Assembly: GCA_965178125.1 (NCBI GenBank)
Contig: OZ237737.1
Span: forward strand, 1 to 64,000
Reading direction: 5' to 3'
DNA from: Bilabrum cf. latius
Lineage: Eukaryota
DNA length: 64,000 bases
Numbering within the stretch: position 1 is the first letter of the stretch; each line of letters starts with the position of its first letter. The notes below the pieces were generated by a model, which worked only from the letters and a program-made list of their open reading frames with translations, had not been told where the DNA came from and made no database searches. Made by a program: the position numbers and the translations under genes. Below, one piece after another: positions 1 to 43,258 of this stretch.

Positions 1-487
1 ACCCTAACCCTAACCCTAACCCTAACCCTAACCCTAACCCTAACCCTAACCCTAACCCTAACCCTAACCCTAACCCTAACCCTAACCCTAACCCTAACCC
101 TAACCCTAACCCTAACCCTAACCCTAACCCTAACCCTAACCCTAACCCTAACCCTAACCCTAACCCTAACCCTAACCCTAACCCTAACCCTAACCCTAAC
201 CCTAACCCTAACCCTAACCCTAACCCTAACCCTAACCCTAACCCTAACCCTAACCCTAACCCTAACCCTAACCCTAACCCTAACCCTAACCCTAACCCTA
301 ACCCTAACCCTAACCCTAACCCTAACCCTAACCCTAACCCTAACCCTAACCCTAACCCTAACCCTAACCCTAACCCTAACCCTAACCCTAACCCTAACCC
401 TAACCCTAACCCTAACCCTAACCCTAACCCTAACCCTAACCCTAACCCTAACCCTAACCCTAACCCTAACCCTAACCCTAACCCTAA
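1..487. repeat. Telomeric tract 1 (CCCTAA)n, >=81 units, runs off the window start
   Basis: Perfect CCCTAA hexamers; C-rich strand on +, as expected for a left chromosome end. Confidence 0.99.
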
Positions 488-503
488 GGGCAAGCGGAAT
501 CCC

Positions 504-1406
504 ATGGACGACGACGACGACGACGACGAGGAGGATGTCGCGGAGCACAGCGCCACCACGGTCCGGAGGGAGCAAGGCGGGATGGATCTGGACGACTCAG
601 AGTCCAGCGACTCATAGACCGAGCAAGCACTCCACGATCTTCTCAGAGCCAAGCGAGCGGCGGAGGCCGAGAGAAAGGAAAAGGCAAAGGCCAAACTTAA
701 GGCCAGGACCAAGGCCGCGGGCAAGTCGAAGAGCAAGTCGAAGGGCAAGGCGAAGAGCAAGGGTGCCCGATCGGCAGAGCCGTAGGGCAGGCACGCTGAA
801 GCCGCGCCTCTGGCTAAGATGCAACCCAAGCGATCGCCCGTTCTCCAACCGGGCTATGGCGGAGGAGCTCCCCACGCCGTTGAACAGGAGAAGAGGGGAG
901 CAAGTGGCGCAAGGAGTGGAGCAGCAGCATCACTGCCTCGACAGGACTCTGAGGAAGATGAAGAGGACATCGGTGGTCGGTACCACGTAGACGCAGCCGA
1001 AGAGCAGGACGAGGATGAGGCTCCGATAGGGCTCGTGCAGCGGGACGAGGAGGATGGGGACGAGCTGGATGAGGAAGAAGAGAACGAGGCCCAGAACCAG
1101 CAAGACGACTCTGAGAACGACGGTGGAGTGGAGGACAACGGCTTCACTGACTAGCAGCGGCACCTGGTGGACCGCATCCTCGCTGCCTGCGATGACATCG
1201 CGCTGGGCGTCGGCCGGACTCTCGACGACATGCGCGAGGACGTGGAGGAGACAATTGAAGAGAGGGACGACGGGTTGGGCACGCTAGCAGACCTGATGAC
1301 GGCCCTCGAGAAGACGGCGGAAGGAGATCTCAATGCGGCAGGCGTGGACGCTGTTGAGGCGCTCCTGGCAGCTGTCGGTGCGGAACCCTCCTCCGATGAC
1401 GAGTGA
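504..1406 (+). CDS. Cassette ORF copy 1: 300-aa low-complexity acidic/basic protein (TAG=Gln), possibly 5'-truncated
   Basis: ATG at 504 (MDDDDDDDEED...), in-frame TAGs at 615, 783 and 1152, TGA at 1404-1406. Joins track ORFs 819..1154 and 1167..1406. K/A/S-rich tract (KAKAKLKARTKAAGKSKSKSKGKAKSKG) followed by an E/D-rich tract. Confidence 0.7.
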
Positions 1407-1706
1407 AAAGCAGCCAGGCGGATGGCAATTGAGGTCAGTGGCAGCTGGGCCAGCTTGTGAGAGGAGCTTGCCAAAGTGCCAGCCAGTGACCCGTTAGGAC
1501 GGGATAGTAGGAGCCACGTAATACTCTATGAAGTCTTGACTGTAAGCACATGAATACCTGGTATCGAAGCGTTCCTTCAAACAAGTACCATTGAGAACGA
1601 CACCACATCCATATAGTCCATGATCTGAAAGCAACACGTATTTTTCGGACATGATTCCAATCCATCAATCACAATGTCACCAAAAATCACAACAAACCCT
1701 AGGGAT

Positions 1707-2731
1707 CATTTGGCCCATGTTGTGCCCCAAGACCGTCCCAATGCAGTTTGAACCGTCTTCATATGTCCTGTAGTTGCCGAGATCTCAATCCGCGAAAATT
1801 CAGCATGAAATCCTTCATCGGCTCGTATCGGCGCCGCGCGACATAAACGGAACCTGGGGAACATTTGGCCCATGTTGTGCCCCAAGACCGTCCCAATGCA
1901 GTTTGAACGGTCTTCATATGTCCTGTAGTTGCCGAGATCTCAATCCGCGAAAATTCAGCATGAAATCCTTCATCGGCACGTATCGGCGCCGCGCGACATA
2001 AACGGAACCTGGGGAACATTTGGCCCATGTTGTGCCCCAAGACCGTCCCAATGCAGTTTGAACCGTCTTCATATGTCCTGTAGTTGCCGAGATCTCAATC
2101 CGCGAAAATTCAGCATGAAATCCTTCATCGGCACGTATCGGCGCCGCGCGACATAAACGGAACCTGGGGAACATTTGGCCCATGTTGTGCCCCAAGGCCG
2201 TCCCAATGCAGTTTGAACGGTCTTCATATGTCCTGTAGTTGCCGAGATCTCAATCCGCGAAAATTCAGCATGAAATCCTTCATCGGCACGTATCGGCGCC
2301 GCGCGACATAAACGGAACCTGGGGAACATTTGGCCCATGTTGTGCCCCAAGACCGTCCCAATGCAGTTTGAACGGTCTTCATATGTCCTGTAGTTGCCGA
2401 GATCTCAATCCGCGAAAATTCAGCATGAAATCCTTCATCGGCTCGTATCAGCGCCGCGCGACATAAACGGAACCTGGGGAACATTTGGCCCATGTTGTGC
2501 CCCAAGACCGTCCCAATGCAGTTTGAACGGTCTTCATATGTCCTGTAGTTGCCGAGATCTCAATCCGCGAAAATTCAGCATGAAATCCTTCATCGGCACG
2601 TATCGGCGCCGCGCGACATAAACGGAACCTGGGGAACATTTGGCCCATGTTGTGCCCCAAGGCCGTCCCAATGCAGTTTGAACGGTCTTCATATGTCCTG
2701 TAGTTGCCGAGATCTCAATCCGCGAAAATTC
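1707..2731. repeat. 155-bp tandem satellite, ~6.6 copies (cassette 1)
   Basis: CATTTGGCCCATGTTGTGCCCC recurs at 1707, 1862, 2017 and so on; monomers differ by a few SNPs. Confidence 0.97.
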
Positions 2732-2791
2732 GACAAAAATTGAAGATGAAAATATTTTTTCCCCGACCCTGTCCCTGACTTTATAATAGAT

Positions 2792-3296
2792 ACCCTAACC
2801 CTAACCCTAACCCTAACCCTAACCCTAACCCTAACCCTAACCCTAACCCTAACCCTAACCCTAACCCTAACCCTAACCCTAACCCTAACCCTAACCCTAA
2901 CCCTAACCCTAACCCTAACCCTAACCCTAACCCTAACCCTAACCCTAACCCTAACCCTAACCCTAACCCTAACCCTAACCCTAACCCTAACCCTAACCCT
3001 AACCCTAACCCTAACCCTAACCCTAACCCTAACCCTAACCCTAACCCTAACCCTAACCCTAACCCTAACCCTAACCCTAACCCTAACCCTAACCCTAACC
3101 CTAACCCTAACCCTAACCCTAACCCTAACCCTAACCCTAACCCTAACCCTAACCCTAACCCTAACCCTAACCCTAACCCTAACCCTAACCCTAACCCTAA
3201 CCCTAACCCTAACCCTAACCCTAACCCTAACCCTAACCCTAACCCTAACCCTAACCCTAACCCTAACCCTAACCCTAACCCTAACCCTAACCCTAA
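2792..3296. repeat. Internal telomeric tract 2 (CCCTAA)n, 505 bp (~84 units)
   Basis: Perfect hexamers. Confidence 0.99.
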
Positions 3297-3312
3297 GGGC
3301 AAGCGGAATCCC

Positions 3313-4215
3313 ATGGACGACGACGACGACGACGACGAGGAGGATGTCGCGGAGCACAGCGCCACCACGGTCCGGAGGGAGCAAGGCGGGATGGATCTGG
3401 ACGACTCAGAGTCCAGCGACTCATAGACCGAGCAAGCACTCCACGATCTTCTCAGAGCCAAGCGAGCGGCGGAGGCCGAGAGAAAGGAAAAGGCAAAGGC
3501 CAAACTTAAGGCCAGGACCAAGGCCGCGGGCAAGTCGAAGAGCAAGTCGAAGGGCAAGGCGAAGAGCAAGGGTGCCCGATCGGCAGAGCCGTAGGGCAGG
3601 CACGCTGAAGCCGCGCCTCTGGCTAAGATGCAACCCAAGCGATCGCCCGTTCTCCAACCGGGCTATGGCGGAGGAGCTCCCCACGCCGTTGAACAGGAGA
3701 AGAGGGGAGCAAGTGGCGCAAGGAGTGGAGCAGCAGCATCACTGCCTCGACAGGACTCTGAGGAAGATGAAGAGGACATCGGTGGTCGGTACCACGTAGA
3801 CGCAGCCGAAGAGCAGGACGAGGATGAGGCTCCGATAGGGCTCGTGCAGCGGGACGAGGAGGATGGGGACGAGCTGGATGAGGAAGAAGAGAACGAGGCC
3901 CAGAACCAGCAAGACGACTCTGAGAACGACGGTGGAGTGGAGGACAACGGCTTCACTGACTAGCAGCGGCACCTGGTGGACCGCATCCTCGCTGCCTGCG
4001 ATGACATCGCGCTGGGCGTCGGCCGGACTCTCGACGACATGCGCGAGGACGTGGAGGAGACAATTGAAGAGAGGGACGACGGGTTGGGCACGCTAGCAGA
4101 CCTGATGACGGCCCTCGAGAAGACGGCGGAAGGAGATCTCAATGCGGCAGGCGTGGACGCTGTTGAGGCGCTCCTGGCAGCTGTCGGTGCGGAACCCTCC
4201 TCCGATGACGAGTGA
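3313..4215 (+). CDS. Cassette ORF copy 2 (300 aa, TAG=Gln)
   Basis: Same as 504..1406. Confidence 0.7.
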
Positions 4216-4515
4216 AAAGCAGCCAGGCGGATGGCAATTGAGGTCAGTGGCAGCTGGGCCAGCTTGTGAGAGGAGCTTGCCAAAGTGCCAGCCAGTGACC
4301 CGTTAGGACGGGATAGTAGGAGCCACGTAATACTCTATGAAGTCTTGACTGTAAGCACATGAATACCTGGTATCGAAGCGTTCCTTCAAACAAGTACCAT
4401 TGAGAACGACACCACATCCATATAGTCCATGATCTGAAAGCAACACGTATTTTTCGGACATGATTCCAATCCATCAATCACAATGTCACCAAAAATCACA
4501 ACAAACCCTAGGGAT

Positions 4516-5540
4516 CATTTGGCCCATGTTGTGCCCCAAGACCGTCCCAATGCAGTTTGAACCGTCTTCATATGTCCTGTAGTTGCCGAGATCTCAATCC
4601 GCGAAAATTCAGCATGAAATCCTTCATCGGCTCGTATCGGCGCCGCGCGACATAAACGGAACCTGGGGAACATTTGGCCCATGTTGTGCCCCAAGACCGT
4701 CCCAATGCAGTTTGAACGGTCTTCATATGTCCTGTAGTTGCCGAGATCTCAATCCGCGAAAATTCAGCATGAAATCCTTCATCGGCACGTATCGGCGCCG
4801 CGCGACATAAACGGAACCTGGGGAACATTTGGCCCATGTTGTGCCCCAAGACCGTCCCAATGCAGTTTGAACCGTCTTCATATGTCCTGTAGTTGCCGAG
4901 ATCTCAATCCGCGAAAATTCAGCATGAAATCCTTCATCGGCACGTATCGGCGCCGCGCGACATAAACGGAACCTGGGGAACATTTGGCCCATGTTGTGCC
5001 CCAAGGCCGTCCCAATGCAGTTTGAACGGTCTTCATATGTCCTGTAGTTGCCGAGATCTCAATCCGCGAAAATTCAGCATGAAATCCTTCATCGGCACGT
5101 ATCGGCGCCGCGCGACATAAACGGAACCTGGGGAACATTTGGCCCATGTTGTGCCCCAAGACCGTCCCAATGCAGTTTGAACGGTCTTCATATGTCCTGT
5201 AGTTGCCGAGATCTCAATCCGCGAAAATTCAGCATGAAATCCTTCATCGGCTCGTATCAGCGCCGCGCGACATAAACGGAACCTGGGGAACATTTGGCCC
5301 ATGTTGTGCCCCAAGACCGTCCCAATGCAGTTTGAACGGTCTTCATATGTCCTGTAGTTGCCGAGATCTCAATCCGCGAAAATTCAGCATGAAATCCTTC
5401 ATCGGCACGTATCGGCGCCGCGCGACATAAACGGAACCTGGGGAACATTTGGCCCATGTTGTGCCCCAAGGCCGTCCCAATGCAGTTTGAACGGTCTTCA
5501 TATGTCCTGTAGTTGCCGAGATCTCAATCCGCGAAAATTC
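4516..5540. repeat. 155-bp tandem satellite, ~6.6 copies (cassette 2)
   Basis: Same monomer variant order as cassette 1. Confidence 0.97.
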
Positions 5541-5600
5541 GACAAAAATTGAAGATGAAAATATTTTTTCCCCGACCCTGTCCCTGACTTTATAATAGAT

Positions 5601-6201
5601 ACCCTAACCCTAACCCTAACCCTAACCCTAACCCTAACCCTAACCCTAACCCTAACCCTAACCCTAACCCTAACCCTAACCCTAACCCTAACCCTAACCC
5701 TAACCCTAACCCTAACCCTAACCCTAACCCTAACCCTAACCCTAACCCTAACCCTAACCCTAACCCTAACCCTAACCCTAACCCTAACCCTAACCCTAAC
5801 CCTAACCCTAACCCTAACCCTAACCCTAACCCTAACCCTAACCCTAACCCTAACCCTAACCCTAACCCTAACCCTAACCCTAACCCTAACCCTAACCCTA
5901 ACCCTAACCCTAACCCTAACCCTAACCCTAACCCTAACCCTAACCCTAACCCTAACCCTAACCCTAACCCTAACCCTAACCCTAACCCTAACCCTAACCC
6001 TAACCCTAACCCTAACCCTAACCCTAACCCTAACCCTAACCCTAACCCTAACCCTAACCCTAACCCTAACCCTAACCCTAACCCTAACCCTAACCCTAAC
6101 CCTAACCCTAACCCTAACCCTAACCCTAACCCTAACCCTAACCCTAACCCTAACCCTAACCCTAACCCTAACCCTAACCCTAACCCTAACCCTAACCCTA
6201 A
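5601..6201. repeat. Internal telomeric tract 3 (CCCTAA)n, 601 bp (~100 units)
   Basis: Perfect hexamers; 96 bp (16 units) longer than tract 2. Confidence 0.99.
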
Positions 6202-6217
6202 GGGCAAGCGGAATCCC

Positions 6218-7120
6218 ATGGACGACGACGACGACGACGACGAGGAGGATGTCGCGGAGCACAGCGCCACCACGGTCCGGAGGGAGCAAGGCGGGATGGA
6301 TCTGGACGACTCAGAGTCCAGCGACTCATAGACCGAGCAAGCACTCCACGATCTTCTCAGAGCCAAGCGAGCGGCGGAGGCCGAGAGAAAGGAAAAGGCA
6401 AAGGCCAAACTTAAGGCCAGGACCAAGGCCGCGGGCAAGTCGAAGAGCAAGTCGAAGGGCAAGGCGAAGAGCAAGGGTGCCCGATCGGCAGAGCCGTAGG
6501 GCAGGCACGCTGAAGCCGCGCCTCTGGCTAAGATGCAACCCAAGCGATCGCCCGTTCTCCAACCGGGCTATGGCGGAGGAGCTCCCCACGCCGTTGAACA
6601 GGAGAAGAGGGGAGCAAGTGGCGCAAGGAGTGGAGCAGCAGCATCACTGCCTCGACAGGACTCTGAGGAAGATGAAGAGGACATCGGTGGTCGGTACCAC
6701 GTAGACGCAGCCGAAGAGCAGGACGAGGATGAGGCTCCGATAGGGCTCGTGCAGCGGGACGAGGAGGATGGGGACGAGCTGGATGAGGAAGAAGAGAACG
6801 AGGCCCAGAACCAGCAAGACGACTCTGAGAACGACGGTGGAGTGGAGGACAACGGCTTCACTGACTAGCAGCGGCACCTGGTGGACCGCATCCTCGCTGC
6901 CTGCGATGACATCGCGCTGGGCGTCGGCCGGACTCTCGACGACATGCGCGAGGACGTGGAGGAGACAATTGAAGAGAGGGACGACGGGTTGGGCACGCTA
7001 GCAGACCTGATGACGGCCCTCGAGAAGACGGCGGAAGGAGATCTCAATGCGGCAGGCGTGGACGCTGTTGAGGCGCTCCTGGCAGCTGTCGGTGCGGAAC
7101 CCTCCTCCGATGACGAGTGA
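6218..7120 (+). CDS. Cassette ORF copy 3 (300 aa, TAG=Gln)
   Basis: Same as 504..1406. Confidence 0.7.
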
Positions 7121-7420
7121 AAAGCAGCCAGGCGGATGGCAATTGAGGTCAGTGGCAGCTGGGCCAGCTTGTGAGAGGAGCTTGCCAAAGTGCCAGCCAG
7201 TGACCCGTTAGGACGGGATAGTAGGAGCCACGTAATACTCTATGAAGTCTTGACTGTAAGCACATGAATACCTGGTATCGAAGCGTTCCTTCAAACAAGT
7301 ACCATTGAGAACGACACCACATCCATATAGTCCATGATCTGAAAGCAACACGTATTTTTCGGACATGATTCCAATCCATCAATCACAATGTCACCAAAAA
7401 TCACAACAAACCCTAGGGAT

Positions 7421-8445
7421 CATTTGGCCCATGTTGTGCCCCAAGACCGTCCCAATGCAGTTTGAACCGTCTTCATATGTCCTGTAGTTGCCGAGATCTC
7501 AATCCGCGAAAATTCAGCATGAAATCCTTCATCGGCTCGTATCGGCGCCGCGCGACATAAACGGAACCTGGGGAACATTTGGCCCATGTTGTGCCCCAAG
7601 ACCGTCCCAATGCAGTTTGAACGGTCTTCATATGTCCTGTAGTTGCCGAGATCTCAATCCGCGAAAATTCAGCATGAAATCCTTCATCGGCACGTATCGG
7701 CGCCGCGCGACATAAACGGAACCTGGGGAACATTTGGCCCATGTTGTGCCCCAAGACCGTCCCAATGCAGTTTGAACCGTCTTCATATGTCCTGTAGTTG
7801 CCGAGATCTCAATCCGCGAAAATTCAGCATGAAATCCTTCATCGGCACGTATCGGCGCCGCGCGACATAAACGGAACCTGGGGAACATTTGGCCCATGTT
7901 GTGCCCCAAGGCCGTCCCAATGCAGTTTGAACGGTCTTCATATGTCCTGTAGTTGCCGAGATCTCAATCCGCGAAAATTCAGCATGAAATCCTTCATCGG
8001 CACGTATCGGCGCCGCGCGACATAAACGGAACCTGGGGAACATTTGGCCCATGTTGTGCCCCAAGACCGTCCCAATGCAGTTTGAACGGTCTTCATATGT
8101 CCTGTAGTTGCCGAGATCTCAATCCGCGAAAATTCAGCATGAAATCCTTCATCGGCTCGTATCAGCGCCGCGCGACATAAACGGAACCTGGGGAACATTT
8201 GGCCCATGTTGTGCCCCAAGACCGTCCCAATGCAGTTTGAACGGTCTTCATATGTCCTGTAGTTGCCGAGATCTCAATCCGCGAAAATTCAGCATGAAAT
8301 CCTTCATCGGCACGTATCGGCGCCGCGCGACATAAACGGAACCTGGGGAACATTTGGCCCATGTTGTGCCCCAAGGCCGTCCCAATGCAGTTTGAACGGT
8401 CTTCATATGTCCTGTAGTTGCCGAGATCTCAATCCGCGAAAATTC
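7421..8445. repeat. 155-bp tandem satellite, ~6.6 copies (cassette 3)
   Basis: Same monomer variant order as cassettes 1 and 2. Confidence 0.97.
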
Positions 8446-8505
8446 GACAAAAATTGAAGATGAAAATATTTTTTCCCCGACCCTGTCCCTGACTTTATAA
8501 TAGAT

Positions 8506-9029
8506 ACCCTAACCCTAACCCTAACCCTAACCCTAACCCTAACCCTAACCCTAACCCTAACCCTAACCCTAACCCTAACCCTAACCCTAACCCTAACCCT
8601 AACCCTAACCCTAACCCTAACCCTAACCCTAACCCTAACCCTAACCCTAACCCTAACCCTAACCCTAACCCTAACCCTAACCCTAACCCTAACCCTAACC
8701 CTAACCCTAACCCTAACCCTAACCCTAACCCTAACCCTAACCCTAACCCTAACCCTAACCCTAACCCTAACCCTAACCCTAACCCTAACCCTAACCCTAA
8801 CCCTAACCCTAACCCTAACCCTAACCCTAACCCTAACCCTAACCCTAACCCTAACCCTAACCCTAACCCTAACCCTAACCCTAACCCTAACCCTAACCCT
8901 AACCCTAACCCTAACCCTAACCCTAACCCTAACCCTAACCCTAACCCTAACCCTAACCCTAACCCTAACCCTAACCCTAACCCTAACCCTAACCCTAACC
9001 CTAACCCTAACCCTAACCCTAACCCTAAC
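8506..9029. repeat. Proximal telomeric tract 4 (CCCTAA)n, ~524 bp (~87 units)
   Basis: Perfect hexamers ending in one degenerate unit (CTCTAG) at the subtelomere border. Confidence 0.98.
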
Positions 9030-9033
9030 TCTA

Positions 9034-9302
9034 GTTGGTGTTTGGGGGACATGTTGAGCGTGCGGCGGGTGGGAGGGCCTGTGGGTGTTTGGGGGACATG
9101 TTAAGCGTGCGACGGGTGGGAGGGCCTGTGGGTGTTTGGGGGACATGTTGAGCGTGCGGCGGGTGGGAGGGCCTGTGGGTGTTTGGGGGACATGTTAAGC
9201 GTGCGGCGGGTGGGAGGGCCTGTTGGTGTTTGGGGGACATGTTGAGCGTGCGGCGGGTGGGAGGGCCTGTGGGTGTTTGGGGGACATATTGAGCGTGCGG
9301 TG
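9034..9302 (+). repeat. Subtelomeric 47-bp G-rich minisatellite, ~5.7 copies
   Basis: GGGGGACATG recurs at 9044, 9091, 9138 and so on; unit is about GTGGGTGTTTGGGGGACATGTTGAGCGTGCGGCGGGTGGGAGGGCCT. Confidence 0.95.
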
Positions 9303-9360
9303 GATAACGGTGAACATGACAACTGGCCGATAGAACTCAATCAATACTCTGCTCTCTTAT

Positions 9361-10839
9361 TCAAAGTGCGGCCTCATATATACCAACGATATCCTCCGTG
9401 GACAACCGGATGGGGTTGTTCCCAAGCCTAACGGGGTCGACCGCTTGTGCCAGTGACTCAATGTCGGCCCTGTCTACCCCTGCCTCTGACAGCGTGGCCG
9501 GCAGCTTGAACTAGCGAAGCCAGGCACGCATGGCCTTCGGGGCTTCCTCAGGACTGACAGTCCCCCCCTGTTCCGCTAGCCACGAACACGACTCTCGCAC
9601 AGCAGCCAACACCTGTTCCGCCCCTGCAGGGTGGTTGCAAGCATCCGAGTTGACTCTACCCGCGATGATATCCGTGGCAATGGCAGCATTGGCCCGGGCA
9701 ACATGGCCGAGAGTGAGGCACACCGCAAGCCCATGTGGTACTCCATACCTCTGCGTGAGCTGGTAGGACAGCGCATGCCCCGCCGTGGTCTTGCACTCGG
9801 AGATGGCACGGCCTGCCATGTAGGATGCTCGACTCACTGCGTGTACCGCCCCGCCTGATGCTGATTCCATGTCTTGCTACGCCCCCGTCCAGTCCTCTTC
9901 GACTGCATCCTGCCAGCTGAACCGGCGGGCGCCGTCCGTCGCGACTTTGCTCAACGCAGAGATCCGGCGAAGCAGCTCTGCATCGGGGCTCTGCCGCAGC
10001 GCTGCGAGGCGAGTATTGCTGCAGGAATGTAGCTTCTCGGCCACTGCAACTGCTTCAGGCAGCTGCGCGATAATGACCTGCCCGCCCTGCCTGGCCGCCT
10101 CGATGCCCACCGCAGTTGCCCCGCTTGCCCACCGCGCCTCCATGCAGTGGGCAAGCGCGTCCAAGCCAGTCACGGCGGCAATGCTGGGTGGCATGCTCTA
10201 CTTGAGAGATGCGTCCAGTATGACGCGCGCTGGCAAGAGGCCAGGATGATCCACTGATCGTTTCTTCCCGTTGTCATAGATGGCTGCAAATTGTGTGGCC
10301 TCGCTACCCGTGCCACTCGTAGTAGGGCATGCAATCAAGGGGAGTGGATTCACATCTGGTGCTGGTTTACCGCGGGCTACCTGGTAGGCCTCCGTCTAAT
10401 CAGGACACGCAGCTACAAGGGCCGCCACTTTGGCAACGTCCAATGCGGATCCACCTCCAATAGCAATAACAACATCTGTGTCGGTTGCGCGGCATAGTCT
10501 TGCTGCGACTTCAGCTTCCTCGCACTTTGGATTGGGGGAAAAGTCCGTGAATATAGAAATTCGTCCAGATTTCCCGGCTGCAACTGCAGCCGAAACCCAA
10601 GGTGCGAAAACTGCACCGGATCCTTGCGTTGCACCTTTGTCGACGACCAATAATACTGATGATCCCAACCCGATACTTTGGTTTATTCCAAACTACAAGT
10701 CGGTGTAAGTTGCACTAAAATTTGATTCAGCGCCTTCTACTTGAATAACCTTGCTGGCGTGCGTTCTAGTCTTGGACGCTCTGCTAGTCGACATCCATGG
10801 TGGTAGGCGCCTGAGGATCGATCTACAGCTAGATCGCAT
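9361..10839 (-). CDS. Iron-containing (group III) alcohol dehydrogenase, phosphonoacetaldehyde-reductase-like, ~492 aa
   Basis: One frame with TAGs at 10693, 10396, 10198, 9877 and 9511. Motifs [64 protein letters not shown] stop. R/S-rich N-terminus resembles a mitochondrial presequence. Confidence 0.88.
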
Positions 10840-11167
10840 GGTATTCTTTGAGATTTGGACCTGCAACGTTCGATATGTATTCGCAGTCTGACAAAATATG
10901 CTCTCAAAATTGAGTAGGAAAACTGCAGTGCACTATGGTACGCAGAGCGGTGGCTTGTGCCGATACTGCACCAAAGAAACCATTCAGTCGACAAAGATTG
11001 TTGTAAGAAATCAATTTCGTCGACTACCTATCCGAGCTGCTGTTGCACCAGGAAGGAACTGCTGGTTGAAGACAATTTGCTGAGACTTGGGTGCCAACGT
11101 TGCACCCTGCTTTCTCGCTGCAATTGTTATCTTGTTATTATTTTGTTCACTTCCTGCCTGCAGTAGC

Positions 11168-11521
11168 ATGATTGACAGGGTAGCAGGAGTTGGAATGATT
11201 GCCGTAGCTTTGGTCGTGTTTGTCTACTACACGGCCTGGGTGTTTGTGACAGTAAGTCTGCTCGATCTGACTGCCATGCTCGCGAAAAGTGGCAGCATGA
11301 TACTTACTGGCGAATTTAGTACTGCCCTAAACTCACTTTTGCAGCCATTCTTGTCCAAAGATCACGATTTGCTCGGGTATTTCCCTCCGAGATTCCTCGC
11401 TTCTGCCATCCCTGCTGTCACACTAGTCGTCTTGCTGACGTTTACAATTGGATACTATGGCTACGTTAAGAGTTAGTAGGCAGCCAAGAAGAGGGAGAAG
11501 GAGTCGAAGAAGCTGAAGTAA
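11168..11521 (+). CDS. DPM2: Dolichol-phosphate mannose synthase regulatory subunit (2 exons, intron 11252-11344)
   Basis: DRVAGVGMIAVALVVFVYYTAWVFVT|PFLSKDH...YFPPRFLASAIP matches the DPM2 pattern. Reading TAG TAG at 11474-11479 gives a C-terminal KKLK dilysine motif before TAA. Confidence 0.85.
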
Positions 11522-11597
11522 TTGGCACGCGCAGCCGTGATTGAATAATTGACGAGCATACTTTGTATATCTGGCGCATAGTTGAATGCAAACGAGC

Positions 11598-14639
<3,042 letters not shown>

Positions 14640-18165: not shown

Positions 18166-21047
18166 ATGAGCGACTATTATAACTTCAAAACGATCCCACC
18201 GGTCCCCAATGCCAAAGAATTCGTTGACATTGTGCTGCTACGCACGCAGCGGAGGACACCAACCGTGATTCACCCCCAGTTTCACATCAAGAGAATTCGT
18301 GAATTCTACATGCGCAAGGTGCGCTTTACGCAGCAGACCTTTCATGAGAAGATTACCCAGATCTTAGATCGGTTTCCCAGGCTGGATGTGAGCTAAATAG
18401 TCGCTGAGTTGGTGCAGTTGCCGTTCCGGCTGGAAGAACTGCGGGTTCATTGCCGCGCTGATCTACAATCTACTTAATTTTGCCCGTTCTACTCTTGCAG
18501 GACATTCATCCATTCTATCAAGACCTGATGAATGTGTTGTATGACCGAAATCATTACAAGATTGCGCTTGGGCGTCTCCGGACCACCAGGACAACGATCG
18601 ACTCGATCTGCAAGGATCACGAGCGCCTCCTAAAATTTGGTGACGAGCCGTTTCGGTGCAAGTGCCTGAAACGAGCTGCACTTGGACGCATGTGCACGGC
18701 AATGAGGCGACTAGGACCCAGCTTGGAGTATCTCGAAGAGGTCCGCAGGCACCTTTCGAGACTGCCTGCGATCAACCCTGCCACGCGTACTCTTCTGGTC
18801 ACTGGGTACCCGAACGTAGGCAAGAGCAGCTTCGTCAACAACATCACTCGTGCAGATGTCGAGGTGCAGCCGTTCGCCTTCACCACCAAGAGTTTGTTTG
18901 TGGGCCACACCGACTACAAGTTCCACCGGTGGCAGGTGCTGGACACCCCTGGTATTTTGGATAGGCCGCTGGACAAGAGGAACACGATCGAAATGCAGGC
19001 AATCACAGCCCTGGCCCATCTGCACGCGGCTGTCCTGTACTTCTTGGACATATCCGAGTCGTGCGGGTACTCGATCGAGGCCCAGTGCAAGCTCTTCGAG
19101 TCCATCACGCCCCTCTTCCAGGGCAAGCCCGTGCACGTTATCTGCACCAAGACCGACCTGCAGCCGTGGAATAAGCTCGAGAAGGGAGAGCAGCAGAGAG
19201 TGAGTTGGTTTTGAAGTGTTCCTTGCCCCCTGTGCTGACTGCCCCGCGCCCCGCCCCGCCTTGTCCCCCGGCCGCTTTACCAACCTCCCTCTTGCACCGA
19301 CTCGAGGGCGGCTAAATCTGAGGCCCACATGAATGCTTGTGCATGGATCCCCCTGGAGTAGCCTATGCTCTCCTTGGGCCCCTGCTCCGTGCCATAGTTC
19401 GGCCTGGCTTGTCCCCAGGGGCTCGCCAGGGGGGCTCTTCGCCTGGGAGTGTACCTTCGGGTCAATGCCCGGGCGCGGGGTCTTTCTTGAGCTGGGCGAC
19501 ACTTAGAGCTTTTGACTGCTTCCCGCTGTCACTGTGCCTCTGTCTTGGTTGCGGTTTGTTCTCCACTGCCACCGCAGATCGAGCAGATGGCCGCCAAGGC
19601 GGGTTGCCCCCTGCTGTTCATGTCCAACGCCAGCAAGGAGGGGGTCATGAAGGTCAGGAACCAGGCTTGCGAGCGCCTCATGAGGGCCCGTATTGCGCAG
19701 AGCATGAAAGGCAACCGCGTGGCGTCCATCATCGGGCGGCTGACCGTGGCTGTACCCAAGGCAAGGGACGGCAAGGCCAGGCCCGCGGCCATCCCGGACA
19801 GCGTCAGGGAGGAGCGGCGCAAGCGGAGGGCAGGGGCTGCCTCCGGACCAAGCTCAGCTGCTGTGGAGAAGGCCGAGGGCGAGGACACGTCGGCGGCCAT
19901 CGCGGCTGCGGCGGAGGCGGTGGCGGATGCGGCGGACGGTGACGGTCCCGTGGTGCTGGGCGACTTCGTGTCTGGCCTGGCCGAGGACGATGCCACCGAG
20001 GCTCTGCTGGCTGGCGGGCTGTACCCCATGGGCAAGGGCGCCGGGCTGCACGTGGAAGGCGCGCTGGTGGCCACTGGCAAGGGCGGCAAGCTGCTGGAGC
20101 GTGACATCGAGAGGGCAGCTGGCGGGGCCGGCATGCACCAGATCGACGGTGCCAAGCAATATTCCCTTTCGGACGACCAGTGGAAGAGGGATATCATGCC
20201 TCAGATCCTGGACGGCAAGAACGTGGCCGACTTCGTGGAGCCCCACGTGGCGGAGCACATGGCCCGCATGGAGAAGGAGGAGGACGAGGTGCTCCGGGCT
20301 GAGGAGGCAGCGGCTGCCTCGCTCAAGGCCTCGACTGGGGGCGAGACAGGCAGCTCTGCGGCAGCATCGTCGTCCTCTTCTTCTGGACAGGTGGCCATGG
20401 GCGGGAGTGGCGCCGACGGTTCTGCCGCCCCCTCGCTTGGTGCCGTGCTGGGTGCCCCCGAGCTGGACAGCTTGGATCGGGAGCAGGAGCACGCACTGGC
20501 GCAGGAGCTCAGGAAGCGCAAGAAGGTGTACCGCCTAAAGCGCACGGTGGAGAAGCGCAACACCCGCTCCATCCTTCCCAGGGATTTGCGGCCCGCGGAG
20601 CCCGATGGGGCCGCCCGCCAGCTGGAGCGCATGGGCATGGAGCCGGCCGCAGCCCAGGCCAAGGCAGAGCAGATGGCTGGGGCGGGCCGCCGGGGTCGCA
20701 AGAGAGGCAGAGAGCCCTCGGCTGCAGGCCGCGCGGGTTCGGGAGCCGGCCAGGTGGCCATGGGGGAGGGCGAGGGCAGCGAGCAGCCAGACGCCAAGCG
20801 GCGCAAGAGGTCCAAGAGTAGGGTGAGGCTGGACCCAGCCAACGTGGAGGTGGACTACTCGAGCAAGCTGGACAGAGGTCTGAAGGACTCGAGGCAGAAG
20901 GTCTCCGCCATCAGGCACCTGCGGAGGGCCCGTCGCCAGATGCAGATGAACGCCAAGAAGGGCGAGGGAGACCGCGTCATTCTCAACGAGATGCCAAAGC
21001 ACCTGTTCTCGGGCAAGAGGGGCATTGGCAAGACCGACTGGAGGTAA
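18166..21047 (+). CDS. NOG1: Nucleolar GTP-binding protein 1; exons 18166-18387, 18501-19199, 19578-21047
   Basis: [35 protein letters not shown]-terminal [17 protein letters not shown] immediately followed by TAA. GT-AG introns. Confidence 0.96.
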
Positions 21048-21354
21048 TTGCCCCTATCGGTACAAGGTGGTTTGTGTTTCGCATAATTTCTTGTGGCGAC
21101 CTGCTTGCAGCACAGCGAACATCACTACGTGCCACAGTGCGATCCAGTGCGAAAACCGGAAGACCACCCCACCGGACACATCGGAAACTACAATCGATAA
21201 AAACTTCCTCCAGAGTACACAGTTAAACACTTGATCAGGATCTGCCAAAAGAACTGTACACGAAGGCCAGTCTTGGGGTATTGCTTATCTTGCTGGGGCA
21301 TTTATAGGCACTTGCAGGGGCAGAATCGCAAGTTTTGTTTCGGCAGGATCAAAC

Positions 21355-24300
21355 ATGCAGAGGGCTTCAACTTTCGTGCGAAGGCCCACAGATACCATTA
21401 TGATGTAGCTAGGCAAGCTATCAAACTTTGGTATCCAACAAAATTCGGCCATGGTCGATATTTTTCAAGAAATTTTGCGCCGTGTCCGTCGAATCGAGAA
21501 ATCCCTTGGTCCTATGCTTATTCCAGAAACAGAGGAAGAGGAAGACTCAGCTGCTGTTAGTGATGGTGAAATCCTAGGATCACACGGGTCTAGCGGGGCT
21601 GAAGTGCCCGGAGCCGTCACGGCCAAGGCTGCAGGATCAGAGTCGCCAGGACACGCAAAATCCGATGGCAGTAGCATTGCGAACTCATTGACTGGAAACA
21701 TTAATGGCGATCAGTCATCTGCGCCCCACACTAGAGACGCCCCAGTCACGCCTTCTCACGCGATCCCTGTGTAGGGGCCAACTACTAGCGGAAGGCCTAA
21801 ACTCGAGGCCGATGGTGGCAGCGCAACATCCAAGTCGGCGAGTGCGGTCCCACGCAGTGCGGAGTTATCAGAATATGATTCTGCTCAAGACTCTCCTGCA
21901 GAGCCGAATGAAGCAAGCCCCAGCCATCGCATGGGCAAGGACGAGCGGCATAGCCAGGGCAGTCCCAGTCCCAGTGCCCCCGGTGATGGCAGCGTGGATA
22001 GCGCGGGAGGAGGTGCACCTTCTGGCGACCCATCCGTAGCTAGGAGGGAACTACTACTTAGCGTGGAGGTTGTGGATGACTCGAGTGTCATGCATGGTGG
22101 TGAGGGAGAGGGCGAGCTGGATGGGCCCGCCCCGAGCGAGTTCGGCGAGCTGGATGGCCTCATCCGGCAGATCCAGCAGGGGGGCACTGCTGCCGAGGGG
22201 GTGCCTGCTAGTGCTTCGGGAGGCGCGGGGGTTAGCTAGAGCAAGAAGAAGACGACTGCGACCAGCGAGGGGGGTGGAGGGAGTGAAGGTGCTGGTGGTG
22301 GCATGGCACCACAGCAGCGCAAGGCAGGACAGGCCAGCTCTGTCGCACCGACAGAATCCGAAAGCAGTGAAGTACGCCCCTCGACTGCACCAGCGGCTAG
22401 CTTTAGCAACGCGGTCAGTCGCATGCCAGCAAACGCGGGGTTTGGGTCCAGTGCGCGCATGCTGGTGCGTCAGGTGTCGTTGAAGAGGACCATGTCGAAG
22501 ATTCTGACCAAGGCACGCGCTCGCCTAGATGGAGAGGCCATCATCACTCGGGTGCAAGCCGTTGAGGAGCAGCTGGAGGAATCCCGCAAGAGAGAGGAGG
22601 ATCTCAGGCGGCAAATCTTGGCAGTGCGAGACTCTGCCTACCAGCAGAGCAGTGCGTTGAGCCAGGGGCTAGGCCCTGCCATCATCCAGCTGCAGAAGTA
22701 GATGAAGAAGCTACAGGATGGTCGTAGCAACCAATCTGGGTCTAATAAGACAGAAGAAGGTAGCTTGGTCGCTGCGGCTGGCAGACACGGCTTCGGAGAC
22801 GCTGACACGCGGCTCATGCTAACAACAATCGAGGAACACGTGCGCGAGGGTATCCCTGCGGCAGTGGACCCTTTGAAGCAGAAGCTCGCAAATCTTGAGT
22901 CAGACCTCAGGCCATCCGTGGAGGAGGCGCTGGGAACGACGCGATCGATGCGGCAAAGCGTGGAAAGAGCGCAGGAAGCTTCGACAGCAGCGTCAAAGGA
23001 ACTCGTGGACCTCCGATAGCAGCTGCAGGGTGCACTACCGCAACTAGAAGAGGTCATGGAGCAAACGGCCGCTGCAGCACGCCGCGAGAAGCAGCAACGA
23101 GGAGACTTGGACGCGTTGCTTGCTTGGCAGCGCAGACAAGGGGCTGGCGGGGCTGGCACCGAGCTCAATATTTCGGTTGGCAAGCCGCAGGAGACGGACT
23201 GCGTGGCAATCTATGGCATCTCGCCCGAAGCGCTCTTCGGTGAGGTTCCTGGCGAGACCAAGCCGTTCGGAGATCGGGGAACGGGATAGGACCAAGGCGC
23301 GCCGAGTAACAAACCGATGGGTCAATCCACCAGGATGGACGGCCCAACCAGAGTGGGTGCAGACTTTCTGGCATCATGGCTGCACGTTGCAGCTGGTCAC
23401 ACGATGCTGCCAGATGGGGTATTTGCTAAAGACCATTCTGGTGGTGGCACGGTGGAGAGCAAGAAAGATGGAGGAATTGGCCAGGTAGCTGGCGCCACGA
23501 GTGGCCCGGCTGACGCCATGCCCGCGAGAGGTCGATTCGACAGCTACCTCACTAGGGCCCTAGATGGCGCAAAACTGACGCTACGAGCCCTATGTTCTGG
23601 AGGTAAAGAGGCTCTTGCAGTTTGGCCAGTGAACCCGGCCGAGGAACTAGCTGATTTGGATCAAGTCCGAGCTCTGGTCAAGTCTAGAGCGGACGGAAGC
23701 GCCAATGACATCGCTCCCATGCCGCTTGACATGTACTAGACGTGGACTGGCGAAGAGCTCAAATAGGCCGCGGTCATGCACCAGTTTGACCGGGCAGTTG
23801 GCGCTGCGCAGGAAGTCATCGCTAGTCTGGAGAGATTTGCTGAGGACGGTGATTCCGACAAAGTGGCAAAGATTTTGCCGAAGCTTACCGCAGCTGTGCG
23901 CGAGGTACGGATGGTGTGCACTCTAGACTGGCCGCTGGCCCTCTTGTCCAGAGAGGATCGCCTTGGGCGGGCTGTGAATCCGCCTGCCTTCGCGCGACGA
24001 CTGTCTGCCATCCGACACGAGTTACGCGAGAGTGGCTCGACTGCCGACGACACAGTCGCGCTCCGCCCGTCCGTGGCATCGCTGCAGGATTTGTGCGATG
24101 CCGCTTTTATTGCAGCAGAACGAGCGTGCTGGTGCGTGGGTCTCAGTTCGTTCTCCCGCTCCCTGGCACGCGGCGCAGCATCCCAGCAGGCTGCGATGGA
24201 GGACCGCATGGACCAGGTTGGAGATGCGCTGCAGCGAAGCAACGCAGCGATAGCAGAAGACATGGATAGGCTCAGGCATTCGGGGCAGAACACGCATGAC

Positions 24301-25782
24301 CGATTGGTTGGAGTCGAGTCTGTATGCACCTCACTGCAGTCTGCATTTACGAGCTCGTCTGCCCGCAAGAACGAGCTGCCTGACCAGCTCGGTGCAAGGG
24401 TGGCCATGGCACTCGAGCGCGCCGAGGTTGCCGAGAAGGGAATCAAGGCTCTCGAGTAGTAGATCATGAGCAGTGTCAGCAAAGATGACATGGAGGAGGC
24501 GCTGAGCGCAGTCAAGCTGGCTCTGGGCAACTCGGGCGAGGATGGATTACAAGAAGGGAAGGCCTCGGCCGTGCACCCCGACTCGGCTGCAGGATAGGAG
24601 CACAAACGGCTGAGGAGCGAGGTAATCAGGCTGTCCAGGATGCTGCATGACAAGGCAGACGAAAGCCAGCTGCACGATCTGCAGGCTGCTCTGCAGAACG
24701 CGATGGGCAACCTACAGCGGATGGAGCAGGCCAGCGAGCCCACCGGCTATGACACGATCCTGTCTACGCGCAGGCTGTGCATGAGCTGCAATCAGCCGCT
24801 ACCGGTAAATCATCCTGATGCTCAGAAAGATCCGAAGGAAACGCTCTTGACCTCGTCTGCAACTCGGGCGATTCGTGTGCCCGGGGAATCGCGGCGTCGA
24901 GGCTCGGCACACCGCCGGGCGCTCGACCCCGGCCTGGCGCAGGTGGGCATGCTGTCGGACTCAGTGGCATCGCTTCCCGCGCGACTCAGTAGCGAAGGTG
25001 AGCATAGCCTTGAACTAACGGGCGTCAGTTTGCAGGCGGGCCCAGCTGGTGGCAGTTTTGGGCACCTGCCGCACCATGGTGGCCGGTCGGGTGCCGTCTT
25101 GCCTCCGCTTACAGGGAATGAAGAACGCTGGGCGGCGTACGACGGCCTTCCACCCGATGGGTTTGAAGACAGTCCTGGTCTTGCAGAAGAGCCTGGCTTC
25201 AAAGGGCCGTCTTCCTCCGTGCTTATGGGGTCTAGTCTGGATGAGCGGGGCAGCACGAGCGAGGGCTGGCAGACTGGCAGAGGCAGCGCCATGGGTGTCA
25301 GTGGACCTTCTGAAGGGGAAGCAAGCGATGCGCAGCTCCGATCCATCGGTCCAAGTGGCAATGCTTCCCATCGACGCAGGGGGCAGCGCGGGGATGGCGG
25401 GACAGGCAGCACACCGCAGCGCGGCGGGGTGCTGGCTCCCATCGAGGGCGGCACGCACAGGGGCAGGCCCCCCATGTCGAGAAGCAGCTCGAAAGGGAGG
25501 CTTCCGGGCGACTTGCGGGGTCCAGGGCGCGTGCAAGACTCATGGCAGGTGTCGGGCGTGCGGACAGCCAAGGGTGGTGGCGAGATGGCAGGCGGCAAAG
25601 GGCCCATGGTGGTCGGGGGGCACGGGGTCAGTCGGCCCCGTACTGGCGGCGGTGCGGGTGCAGGGCGCGGAGGAGGCGGCCCTGGCAGCCGGAGCAGCCG
25701 GCCTTAGACGACGGCAGTGCAGTCAAGGCAGGCCCGCAGCAAGGTAGTGACCCTGCCGCTTGGTCGGTCAGAGCGGCAGTAA
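21355..25782 (+). CDS. Large hypothetical coiled-coil protein, ~1475 aa (TAG=Gln), with C-terminal CxSC motif
   Basis: Eight track ORFs (21451 to 24640) share one frame, separated only by TAG, and end at TAA 25780-25782. LSTRRLCMSCNQP recalls DUF4795/QRICH2-like tails (tentative). Start uncertain. Confidence 0.75.
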
Positions 25783-28467: not shown

Positions 28468-28638
28468 CGTGCTCAATGGATGTGAGGCGCGGCAATTGGT
28501 GCCGAGTGTGATGATGATGATGAACGAACAGCAACAGTGGCATGCATGCAGAAATTTGTGAGCTGTTATCAGGAGTAACCAACTGTTGGCCGCCCTGTGT
28601 CAAGTTTATCACGCATTTGTCCAGCTTCTATTTGGGGC

Positions 28639-31600: not shown

Positions 31601-31878
31601 AGGCTGGCCGAGAGCATGCCGGTCAATCTAGTGGGGGTGCATCCAGCGGCAGGGGTGCTGCCACTGGAGTGACCATAGATGATAGCGCTACTAACCCGCA
31701 TGGATCGTCAGAAACGGGAAAGCGGCGTCGAATTGACAAGGGCTCCGCGTCGAGCGGAGAGGCCGAGGCGGAGGGGTGTGCAAGGCAGTCGAGTTAGTAC
31801 GCGGAAGGAGTCAAAGAAATGCCTGGTGCAGCCAGTGGCAGTGGCCAAGGGGATGGTAGCGAATCCGGTTTTACCTGA
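28639..31878 (+). CDS. ATP-dependent DNA ligase of the ligase I family, plant LIG6-like catalytic core, ~1079 aa
   Basis: DNA-binding domain (RSRLAKERILVNLFR, HGDLG), PMLA, ELKYDGQRIQVH, DGEIV, CEGIMSK, WIKLKKDY, DLVPIGGWLGNGRKAGW, EY[TAG]SMCRVMSG, SLRFPRLIRTRPDK. Single frame with many TAGs; TGA at 31876. Confidence 0.9.
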
Positions 31879-33423: not shown

Positions 33424-33617
33424 TGGTGAACCCGTGTCGCAGATACTTCAATTTGCAATTAATTCTACGAAACGAACGTTCTTTTTGCGATAGGTGCACT
33501 GCACTGATACGCAGTGCGGGTGCAGAACTGCGTGGTCAAATCGACAGGACCGTTAATTTTTGCCTTGTATAAAGGGTTCAACTCGACCTATTCGAAAAAT
33601 AAGAACATATTTTCGTA

Positions 33618-38834: not shown

Positions 38835-38972
38835 GAGAGAGGGAGAGAAAATAGAGTTTTCGCACGCAGTTCATTACCAGAGACAATCCGAGGACTGCCA
38901 AAGTGAGAGAGAGAGAGAGAAAATAGAGTTTTCGCACGCAATTCAATACCAGAGACAATCCGAGGACTGCCA
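38832..38972. repeat. Imperfect tandem duplication, 72-bp period, 2 copies
   Basis: TGAGAGAGAG...AAAATAGAGTTTTCGCACGCA...CCAGAGACAATCCGAGGACTGCCA begins at 38832 and again at 38904. Confidence 0.9.
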
Positions 38973-41743: not shown

Positions 41744-43258
41744 ATGGAGGGATTGATATCTGCTAAACAACGTCATGCGACTCAAGAGTTATACAATTCT
41801 CTGTAGTGCGCTGGATTACTCGATGGGCGAAACTTGAGAGAGTGAGTAGCTGGTTGCTGTGTGCGATAGCAGTCGATTCTTCATGTGGAAAAAATGGGTC
41901 CGGTTTCCGCGGATCTCCTGCTCCCACAATGTACCCTGCGCAGACTTGTTAAATATTCGGAGCCATCGAATGCTCTAGACCTGTTAGGGGACCTCCTGGG
42001 TCGCTGCTGCCCTGCAGTTGCTAGAAACATGCTGGAGGCTGGAATCACCGTGGTAGGCAAGACTGGTAATGAATTGGCCACTGCCATCTTGTGTGCTGCG
42101 GTTCAAGTTCTTGCATTAAAACCGTCGCTTAGCCCCTCCCAATTTATGGCACATGGGAGGTATGCAGCTCGGCGGATGGGCTTATGCGCAGCCGTGGTGG
42201 GTGCCGCAGCTCAGGCCGAGCTGGATGCACGCCAGAGCAAACCTACGATAAAGCGGGTGGCCCCATACGCTCGTAATGCATCCCAGAGTACAACGTCAGT
42301 GCAACGGGCAAAGGTTTCGGCACCGTTTTCTAGCAAGGCGGCAGGCCGGCGCCCACGTGCCACTCCCAGTAGCGCCTCTGCGACCGCCCTCGGGCCACCA
42401 GTGCCCGTCCCGGGGCGCAGGGAAGCGGGCGGGTCCCGCCTCGGCTCCATGGCGGGGATCAGATGCAAGAAATAGGGCTCGTTGGAGTGGGATTGGGCCA
42501 GCGATGACACGCTGGCCGTGCTGCGGCAGGTGCGCATTGCTGCCGAGCGTGTAGAAAGACGCGTGCTGGGCATCGAGGCCCGGCTGTAGTAGGCCGAGGA
42601 TGTGCTTTTGCGTGGTGCTGGTGATGCTAGCGTGGCGGTAGCAGCCTTACCGAGGCCCGGGATTGGACAGGAGGGGCGCGAGGGCGAAGCTTTCCAGGGC
42701 GAGGTCGGGGAATGGGGCGAGGGCCACTCAGGGGGCGAGGGCGAGGGCGAGGGCGAGGGCGAGGGGCTGTCCTCTGTGGGCGCGCTTGCCTTCTCCCAAG
42801 AGACAGGGCAGGAACAGGAGCAGGATCATGATCTGCATGCCGCAGTCCAAGGCAAAGGGGGTTTGCTGATGGGCAGCGGCAACATTCAGTTGCAGCAGGA
42901 GGAGGAGGAGGAGACTTTGATGCAGGAGGTCACTAGCCTGGGCTCAGGTAGAGCGATGCAGGAGGTCACTAGCCTGGGCTCAGGTAGAGCGATGCAGGAG
43001 GTCACTAGCCTGGGCTCAGGTAGAGCGATGCAGCCCTCGTCTGCGGCAGCAGCTGCACCCTGGTCACTGGAGCATGCAGCGATCGAGACGACGGAAAGGG
43101 CTCACACTACCGAGGGCTAGGTCCCGCGAGAGACCCCTGCGGTGCCCTCCGCTCAGGTGCAGCACCTGCTGGCCCGGCTGGGGGAGGGCATCGCGAGGAC
43201 ACAGTAGATAGTGGCGCGGGTCGAGGGGCTCAGAGGGACTGGGACGAGGTCGACTTGA
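41744..43258 (+). CDS. CEP44: Centrosomal protein CEP44-like; intron 41842-41943
   Basis: VARNMLEAGITVVGKT...LKPSLSPSQFMAHGRYAARRM resembles the CEP44 N-terminal domain. Frame continues through TAGs to TGA at 43256. Confidence 0.6.
42920..43033 (+). repeat. 36-bp coding tandem repeat x3 (MQEVTSLGSGRA)
   Basis: ATGCAGGAGGTCACTAGCCTGGGCTCAGGTAGAGCG repeated exactly. Confidence 0.95.

Follow-up and report, generated by a model that had tools for sequence, protein, structure and literature searches.

We analyzed 64,000 nucleotides of DNA from the eukaryote Bilabrum cf. latius (NCBI GenBank assembly GCA_965178125.1, contig OZ237737.1, positions 1 to 64,000 of the forward strand), a stretch that we refer to as the window. 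Its first 9,036 nucleotides, which lie at a chromosome end, consist of (CCCTAA)n telomere tracts that alternate with three copies of a 2,304-bp sequence carrying an open reading frame (ORF) and a satellite. We call this sequence the cassette.

The array at the chromosome end

Reading inward from the window start, which is the chromosome tip, the order is a tract of 81 repeats, a cassette, 84 repeats, a second cassette, 100 repeats, a third cassette, and a final tract of 87 repeats. The tracts were located with Tandem Repeats Finder, and their purity was assessed with a script that follows 6-nt periodicity. Tandem Repeats Finder describes them as (ACCCTA)n, with 81.2 copies at positions 1-487, 84.2 at 2792-3296, 100.2 at 5601-6201, and 88.0 copies with 99% matches at 8506-9033. 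The first three tracts contain no departure from 6-nt periodicity. They can therefore be written as perfect runs on the plus strand: A(CCCTAA)81 for the terminal tract (1-487, the telomeric C-strand), A(CCCTAA)84 for the tract at 2792-3296, and A(CCCTAA)100 for the tract at 5601-6201. Because the terminal tract reaches the window start, its count should be taken as at least 81. The proximal tract (8506-9036, plus strand) has 87 perfect repeats and then a degenerate end of the CTCTAGTTGG type. Its first departure from periodicity lies at about 9029-9030, and it closes with ...CCCTAACTCTAGTTGG. A first-pass annotation of this DNA had reported the same alternation with the same repeat counts and no degenerate hexamers within the tracts, and both methods agree with it, the fourth tract being clean to about position 9029.

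The three cassettes occupy 488-2791, 3297-5600, and 6202-8505 on the plus strand. Together with 18-19 nt of flanking repeats they align at 100% identity over 2,341 of 2,341 columns, and because the flanks take part in this alignment, the junction registers are the same in all three copies. With three times 2,304 bases identical, chance is not an issue. All cassettes are arranged head to tail with the 5' end of the ORF toward the tip, and in three of three copies a CCCTAA tract lies downstream of the sense strand, exactly the junctions and polarity that the first-pass annotation had described. A cassette plus its following tract measures 2,809, 2,905, or 2,832 bp, with a difference of 96 bp between the two units that are fully internal. 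The remaining 55 kb of the window contains no cassette-like sequence, the best blastn matches being low-complexity segments of no more than 36 nt.

The native chromosome arm begins where the proximal tract ends. A G-rich minisatellite of 47-bp units (9037-9300, no strand assigned; 5.6 units, 95% alike by Tandem Repeats Finder), 264 bp in all, is the sole native subtelomeric sequence of the arm. The first host gene encodes an iron-containing alcohol dehydrogenase (Fe-ADH; 9361-10983, minus strand), and its frame is open solely when six TAG codons are read as sense. The stop codon of this gene lies 60 bp past the minisatellite, and the gene end is 330 bp from the proximal tract. The tract at 8506-9036 is probably the original telomere of the arm, and since there is virtually no other subtelomere, the cassettes appear to have been added to an end that was capped in the ordinary way.

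Each cassette consists of a leader, the ORF, a spacer, the satellite, and an AT-rich tail, five parts in all (coordinates are given here for the first copy, on the plus strand unless noted). The 5' end begins GGGCAAGCGG immediately after a perfect tract, and a 16-nt leader read from the sequence (488-503) separates this tract from the ATG of the ORF (504-1406). The spacer (1407-1697), recognized by composition, has a G+C content of about 0.47. It is followed by a tandem satellite of 155-bp units (1698-2731, no strand assigned; 6.7 units, 98% alike by Tandem Repeats Finder), which makes up 45% of each cassette and was absent from the first-pass description. Private variants among the 155-bp units are the same across all three cassettes. 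The short minus-strand ORFs within the satellite are by-products of the repeat, because 155 is not a multiple of 3. The tail (2732-2791, read from the sequence; G+C content of 0.33) includes telomere-like variant hexamers at 2761-2779 and a TATA-like element, TTTATAATAG, at 2780-2789, which stops 2 nt short of the next tract. The tail terminates ...TTTATAATAGAT directly ahead of that tract. Judging by its motif, the TATA-like element may serve as a promoter.

At the 3' end of the cassette we found no poly(A) or other defined RNA 3' end. The 5' end, directly preceded by a perfect tract, has no variant-repeat cap in the style of the MoTeR elements discussed below. Inverted or long terminal repeat (LTR)-like terminal repeats were absent from the two stretches scanned, which lie on either side of most of the satellite (488-1700 and 2700-3320). 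Rfam gave no match at E ≤ 1 for positions 1-12000, and the window contains no tRNA. No plasmid of PLSDB matches the cassette, which is therefore not a vector. Searches with a 24-mer of the ORF and a 22-mer of the satellite found no match for either in JGI metagenome contigs or in IMG/VR.

The reading frame of the cassette and the genetic code of the host

The cassette ORF is best considered together with the code of its host. Homology continues through TAG in at least six host genes, and by this criterion the nuclear genome uses TAG as a sense codon. Long coding frames of the window are broken by TAG alone, and translating TAG as X yields very long single ORFs. Ten host frames contain 74 in-frame TAG codons among 10,831 codons (0.68%), and their stops are TGA in eight of ten cases and TAA in two, such that TAA as a stop rests on two gene ends. 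The C-terminal domain of the RFC1 homologue is matched contiguously at residues 279-416, across X316, and human RFC1 aligns over residues 6-376. Likewise, the PUL domain (residues 590-788) of the PLAA/Doa1 homologue spans X680, and six TAGs in DNA ligase I and two in Fe-ADH lie within aligned blocks. Three more are found in the CDKL-type kinase domain (13524-14423, minus strand). One of these corresponds to a site with Gln in five of the five PDB homologues listed, and the other two fall at sites that vary among the same homologues (H/Q/K/Q/R and Q/E/V/N/T). The residue read at TAG is probably Gln, an assignment that the alignments suggest rather than prove. Examples of TAG positions within the region 9361-63477 are 47880, 52556, 53690, 36759, and 37575. 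ORF-length statistics alone do not separate a TAG-sense code from a TGA-sense code in GC-rich DNA. An annotation made with the standard code would fragment most genes in the window, and the TAG-sense code is worth recording on its own.

With TAG read as sense, each cassette carries an ORF of 300 codons at 504-1406 on the plus strand, with a TGA stop at 1404-1406 and further copies at 3313-4215 and 6218-7120. In-frame TAG codons occur at 615, 783, and 1152 (3 of 300 codons, 1.0%). The first-pass annotation had called the cassettes ORF-bearing. This is true of the 300-codon frame in the TAG-sense code, but the standard code leaves just 151 and 111 codons for the longest intact ORFs of the cassette. 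Because TAG is a sense codon in host genes, we regard the ORF as intact. Its G+C content at codon positions 1/2/3 is 0.74/0.42/0.71, which marks 504-1406 as the coding frame. The third-position value of 0.71 is lower than in most host ORFs measured (0.72 to 0.88; a fragment of Fe-ADH gave 0.63). The frequency of TAG, which is 1.0% compared to 0.68% in host frames, and the TGA stop indicate that the ORF is native rather than foreign DNA. There is no ATG in the upstream tract or in the leader, as read from the sequence, and therefore the ATG of the ORF would be the first start codon of a transcript begun in the upstream tail or tract. The frame of the ORF is also open across the entire upstream CCCTAA tract, which it reads as CCT AAC.

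Two other explanations for the in-frame TAG codons were rejected. A pseudogene with three TAG nonsense mutations is ruled out by the presence of TAG inside conserved domains of host genes, and a systematic long-read error for CAG is ruled out by the TAGs kept in contigs of three other organisms. These short contigs retain TAG at 615, 783, and 1152, and hence the TAGs are neither recent nonsense mutations nor assembly errors.

The predicted product proceeds from an acidic segment to a basic segment rich in Lys, Ser, and Ala, then to a second acidic segment and a non-repetitive C-terminus of about 85 amino acids. We found no relatives of this protein. Pfam assigned no family at E ≤ 0.1 to the three cassette ORFs (there were just two sub-threshold rows, with E of 0.5-0.65), phmmer recovered 0 of 1.84 billion representatives, and a word-indexed protein search covering lengths of 165-525 amino acids gave no match. 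A search of IMG/VR proteins with the C-terminal 83 amino acids alone produced 92 pattern matches, of which none was confirmed. A helicase is not found in the cassette, given that there is no Pfam family and no relative of the ORF. Pfam also revealed no zinc-knuckle or Gag-like signature in the ORF and no Penelope-type reverse transcriptase (RT) in the cassette. Thus the initial statement that RT, helicase, terminal inverted repeats, LTRs, and poly(A) are missing stands as far as it was tested, by Pfam on the three ORFs, by the terminal-repeat scan, and by reading of the 3' end.

Inward from Fe-ADH there are housekeeping genes, whose products are NOG1, DNA ligase I, RFC1, and PLAA together with a kinase, an E2 acyltransferase, and a HECT E3. 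FERM, CEP44-like, and CDKL kinase genes are present in the window as well, and the G+C content is about 0.6. Together with the TTAGGG telomeres, these features prompted a comparison with Acanthamoeba, but no link to it emerged, and the TAG-sense code speaks for a different lineage. TAG-sense frames of 1,000 to 1,700 codons lie at 21235-25782, 28579-31878, 33603-38834, 43467-47087, 47182-50358, and 51338-55090, and such long uninterrupted frames indicate genes with few or no introns. NOG1 is split over two frames (18462-19214 and 19491-21047), which indicates that some introns or frame changes exist. Several short repeats occur in or near coding frames, including an in-frame (GCACCA)29 at 44301-44476 that gives a Pro-Ala run and two copies of a 72-bp repeat at 38832-38972. 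At 42919-43033, 3.2 perfect copies of a 36-bp repeat give a repeated 12-residue peptide, and (GCAGGT)15 at 52367-52455 gives a Gly-Ala run in the HECT E3 gene.

Relatives of the cassette and comparable telomeric systems

Among the listed results of our literature searches, supplementary files aside, we found no description of the cassette or its organism, and none of a TAG-sense organism with such telomeres. An index of sequencing runs listed twelve runs, of which 10 carry part of the cassette, the best with 0.46 of its words. The matching runs represent five organisms from five studies and are of other organisms or strains. Positions 488-1860 were then mapped on four of the runs (X1, X5, X6, and X7), all of which consist of contigs and hence provide neither starts nor ends nor copy numbers. 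In four of these four runs, the region from 544 to about 1500 is a polymorphic multi-copy family, whereas 488-533 and 1546-1683 have no cover in any of them. Run X1 provides 313 pieces at 85-100% identity, and the summed depth of the family in this run is in the thousands. The summed contig depth of the 155-bp satellite in X1 is far greater, at 1e5 to 2e5, and it is therefore a major satellite in one related organism, far beyond the copies that cassettes alone would contribute. The satellite is not present in X5 to X7, save for depth in the last bin (1822-1860) of X5 and X7.

One X5 contig has telomere-type repeats immediately ahead of position 1432. The family thus lies at chromosome ends beyond this genome as well. 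Among the rows listed, 29 substitutions could be placed in the family, and these fall on codon positions 1/2/3 as 6/14/9, a count that leaves out 76 further rows and a clustered block at 625-633. The lack of concentration at third positions gives no sign of purifying selection on the protein.

Several known systems resemble the array in part. In yeast, Y' is a subtelomeric tandem element located between internal telomere tracts, which bears an ORF and is amplified by recombination. It is 5-7 kb long, encodes a helicase, and has short internal tracts. As assembled, the array shares with Y' the tandem ORF-bearing blocks separated by internal telomere tracts, but the cassette has neither a helicase nor any Pfam family. 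In Drosophila, the HeT-A element carries an ORF that lacks RT, together with a long 3' region, and a promoter at its 3' end drives the downstream neighbor. The 3' ends of Athena, which like Coprina is an endonuclease-deficient Penelope-like element, are complementary to the G-overhang, and HeT-A and the Athena/Coprina elements have the same orientation as the cassette. Unlike these elements, the cassette has no Gag-like or RT domain and no poly(A), and rather than taking the place of full telomerase-type tracts it alternates with them. A review of HeT-A is available (PMC5537684).

A closer precedent for the block itself is TALT of Caenorhabditis elegans, which consists of unique genomic DNA, including part of a gene, with telomere-repeat flanks of one orientation and in tandem within telomeres (PMC4595603). 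A multi-copy TALT1-like array has been described in a wild strain (PMC9066243), and mTALT is reported from mouse embryonic stem cells (PMC7889907). Here too, a unique block has same-orientation telomere repeats on both sides, and in the sequence as assembled it stands in tandem as three copies within the telomere. There are also differences. Amplification of TALT was observed in survivors after telomerase deletion and affected all chromosome ends, whereas here one end is known. Its flanks are telomere-like interstitial sequences, in contrast to the 84-100 perfect repeats around the cassette. Finally, the cassette includes a whole ORF and a satellite, and it has no sequence relation to TALT.

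The head-to-tail order with the 5' end toward the tip is that of telomere-specific non-LTR retrotransposons (HeT-A/TART, MoTeR, and SART/TRAS). Among these, MoTeR1 and MoTeR2 of Magnaporthe form head-to-tail arrays in TTAGGG telomeres, in which the 5' end is closest to the tip, MoTeR2 being the short non-autonomous member of 1.7 kb (PMC7367193). MoTeRs have ends in common with an RT-encoding partner and carry a 5' TTCGGG(TTTGGG)n; their arrays grow and shrink through interstitial tracts by transposition, break-induced replication, or D-loop copying (PMC7367193). A related telomeric retrotransposon of Fusarium is named FoTeR (PMC12857005). The layout of the cassettes is near that of MoTeR2 arrays, but the cassette lacks RT and the 5' variant cap, and its tracts have 84-100 repeats. 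By comparison, interstitial tracts of MoTeRs do not exceed 18 repeats, and in the blast fungus they are already fragile with three or more (PMC7367193).

By analogy, the array would work like TALT or Y' arrays, and its layout is similar to that of MoTeR2 arrays. What sets the cassette apart from TALT, Y', MoTeR, HeT-A, and Penelope-like elements is its perfect internal tracts of 0.5-0.6 kb. The first-pass annotation had proposed a candidate undescribed telomere-extension system. This claim is overstated, since arrays of telomere-flanked unique blocks have already been described (TALT in PMC4595603 and MoTeR in PMC7367193), and yeast Y' adds another example. The array is thus of a kind already described, and its full-sized perfect internal tracts are the unusual part. 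They are unusual because fragility has been noted for long interstitial telomere tracts of other systems (PMC7367193).

Possible routes of amplification

We tentatively favor DNA-templated, recombination-dependent amplification of a unit made of cassette and telomere, similar to that of TALT or Y', although we rate this route somewhat short of probable. The starting state would be an ordinary capped arm whose telomere is the tract at 8506-9036. A terminal TTAGGG strand would pair with a CCCTAA tract, either internal or on the sister, and the paired strand would prime synthesis across the cassette to the end of the template, through break-induced replication or unequal sister exchange. In each round, one telomere tract would be internalized, and one cassette and a fresh terminal tract would be gained. 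The terminal tract would be held at a set length by telomerase or by more recombination. A 2.3-kb subtelomeric block and its tract could thus be copied head to tail, distal to the original telomere. The order of these events, the manner of copying, and the existence of the array as assembled are what we infer from its structure.

Several features are consistent with such copying. The boundaries of the units are the tracts, with the same registers in three of three copies, and templated copying keeps these automatically. Cassettes of 100% identity, down to the private variants of the 155-bp units, and pure tracts indicate that the events were very recent or are ongoing. Tracts of unequal length (84, 100, and 87 repeats) are compatible with recombination because naked repeats can invade in variable register, as the MoTeR study also argues (PMC7367193). 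No RT is present in the cassette, nor in those window ORFs that were scanned, and the cassette has no endonuclease, LTR, or poly(A). The multi-copy family in four of four runs, with one copy next to telomere-type repeats, the native character of the ORF, and the near absence of other subtelomeric sequence on the arm also speak for this route. We give recombination the most weight because it requires no component beyond those observed and has direct precedent, both in the unique blocks between same-orientation telomere repeats that were tandemly amplified at chromosome ends in C. elegans (PMC4595603) and in the expansion of arrays via interstitial tracts (PMC7367193).

Several observations weigh against this route. 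First, all tracts are near one length (at least 81, 84, 100, and 87 repeats). When we simulated random-register pairing of two 88-repeat tracts, both internal tracts fell within 81-100 repeats with p = 0.02-0.045, compared to p of about 0.5 when a whole telomere was internalized in each round, a contrast that is overstated because the standard deviation of the simulation was fitted to the same three values. Recombination can be reconciled with this only by a tendency of pairing toward full overlap or by a short donor tract. Near-equal tracts therefore favor one of three options, namely addition to intact ends, pairing over the full overlap, or an assembly in which the same tracts were used again. 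Second, the polarity, with the 5' end toward the tip and CCCTAA past the 3' end, is exactly that of telomeric retroelements. Third, the search for a donor or master copy was confined to this 64-kb window. Finally, the best of the indexed runs holds 0.46 of the cassette words, and none shows a molecule with more than one cassette.

An unlikely alternative is an RNA-mediated, telomere-targeted, non-autonomous element that follows a HeT-A-like logic. A transcript would start near the TATA-like tail of the upstream cassette, traverse CCCUAA tract, ORF, and satellite, and stop in the next CCCUAA tract. Its 3' repeats would anneal to the TTAGGG overhang, and an RT encoded elsewhere, or telomerase, would copy it onto the end, where a cDNA ending in TTAGGG would already be capped. 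The 5' end facing the tip and the C-strand tract past the 3' end in three of three copies agree with this proposal, and the same orientation is stated for MoTeRs (PMC7367193). Telomere-sized internal tracts are a prediction of addition onto intact ends. The ORF is intact, with its ATG first after tail, tract, and leader, and the cassette has a long repeat-bearing 3' region. The family is also multi-copy, and the X5 copy that starts at 1432 after telomere-type repeats resembles a 5'-truncated insertion, but it is equally well explained by a healed break. Against RNA copying, the cassette and the scanned window ORFs are without RT, and poly(A), a MoTeR-like variant 5' cap, and a zinc-knuckle or Gag-like signature are missing. 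The ORF has no relatives among 1.84 billion representatives, the family substitutions are not biased to third positions among the rows listed (6/14/9), and the three copies are all full-length with a common 5' end. None of the matching runs is recorded as RNA, which is not evidence either way. Identical junctions do not decide the matter, because DNA- and RNA-based copying alike keep junctions identical and permit unequal tracts.

We regard as rather unlikely a more specific form of RNA copying, in which the cassette is a telomere-dedicated, non-autonomous element that cooperates with telomerase and does not replace it. The tail promoter would fire across the tract to give a transcript with CCCUAA at both ends, the 3' repeats would prime on the G-overhang of an intact telomere, and the cDNA would be extended to the set-point. 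The ORF product, translated with the TAG-sense code of the host, would act as a chaperone or targeting protein. Such a cycle would account for every internal tract being a whole, perfect telomere.

It is also improbable that the copy number is an assembly artifact, with one real cassette (or some other number) and reads chained via pure CCCTAA tracts. Perfect cassettes and pure tracts of similar size would be expected if two tracts and one cassette had been reused, and the array, whose three copies are known from the assembled sequence, is at the very end of that sequence. For one TTAGGG protist at least, which is not known to be the present organism, long-read assemblies are reported to contain sub-telomeric misassemblies (PMC12210455). 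However, the entire array of 9 kb is well inside single long reads, and an artifact would require overlaps of 0.5-0.6 kb made of simple repeat alone. Each of the three units has a tract length of its own, as real molecules would, and the family depth in the thousands in run X1 points to many copies in a relative, with the proviso that contig depth is not copy number. Even at a single copy, one cassette between perfect 0.5-kb tracts would survive, because both types of junction exist.

[quoted passage not shown] Rolling-circle copying of an extrachromosomal circle with a cassette and one tract, of the telomerase-negative 'roll and spread' type of Kluyveromyces lactis, is very improbable: identical cassettes and junctions, a unit able to circularize through intra-tract recombination, and the rolling-circle route that the MoTeR paper cites for identical-spacer arrays (PMC7367193) speak for it, but equal unit lengths would be expected and the observed lengths of 2,809, 2,905, and 2,832 bp would need later slippage within a perfect tract.

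If the array is real, it represents a natural, very recent lengthening of a chromosome end with non-telomeric DNA, alongside ordinary TTAGGG tracts. It raises the testable question of how full-length perfect internal tracts are tolerated. A second testable question is whether the copying proceeds from RNA or from DNA, the latter being ALT-like in a wild type that presumably has telomerase. The cassette also puts an intact lineage-specific gene and a 155-bp satellite into telomeric chromatin.

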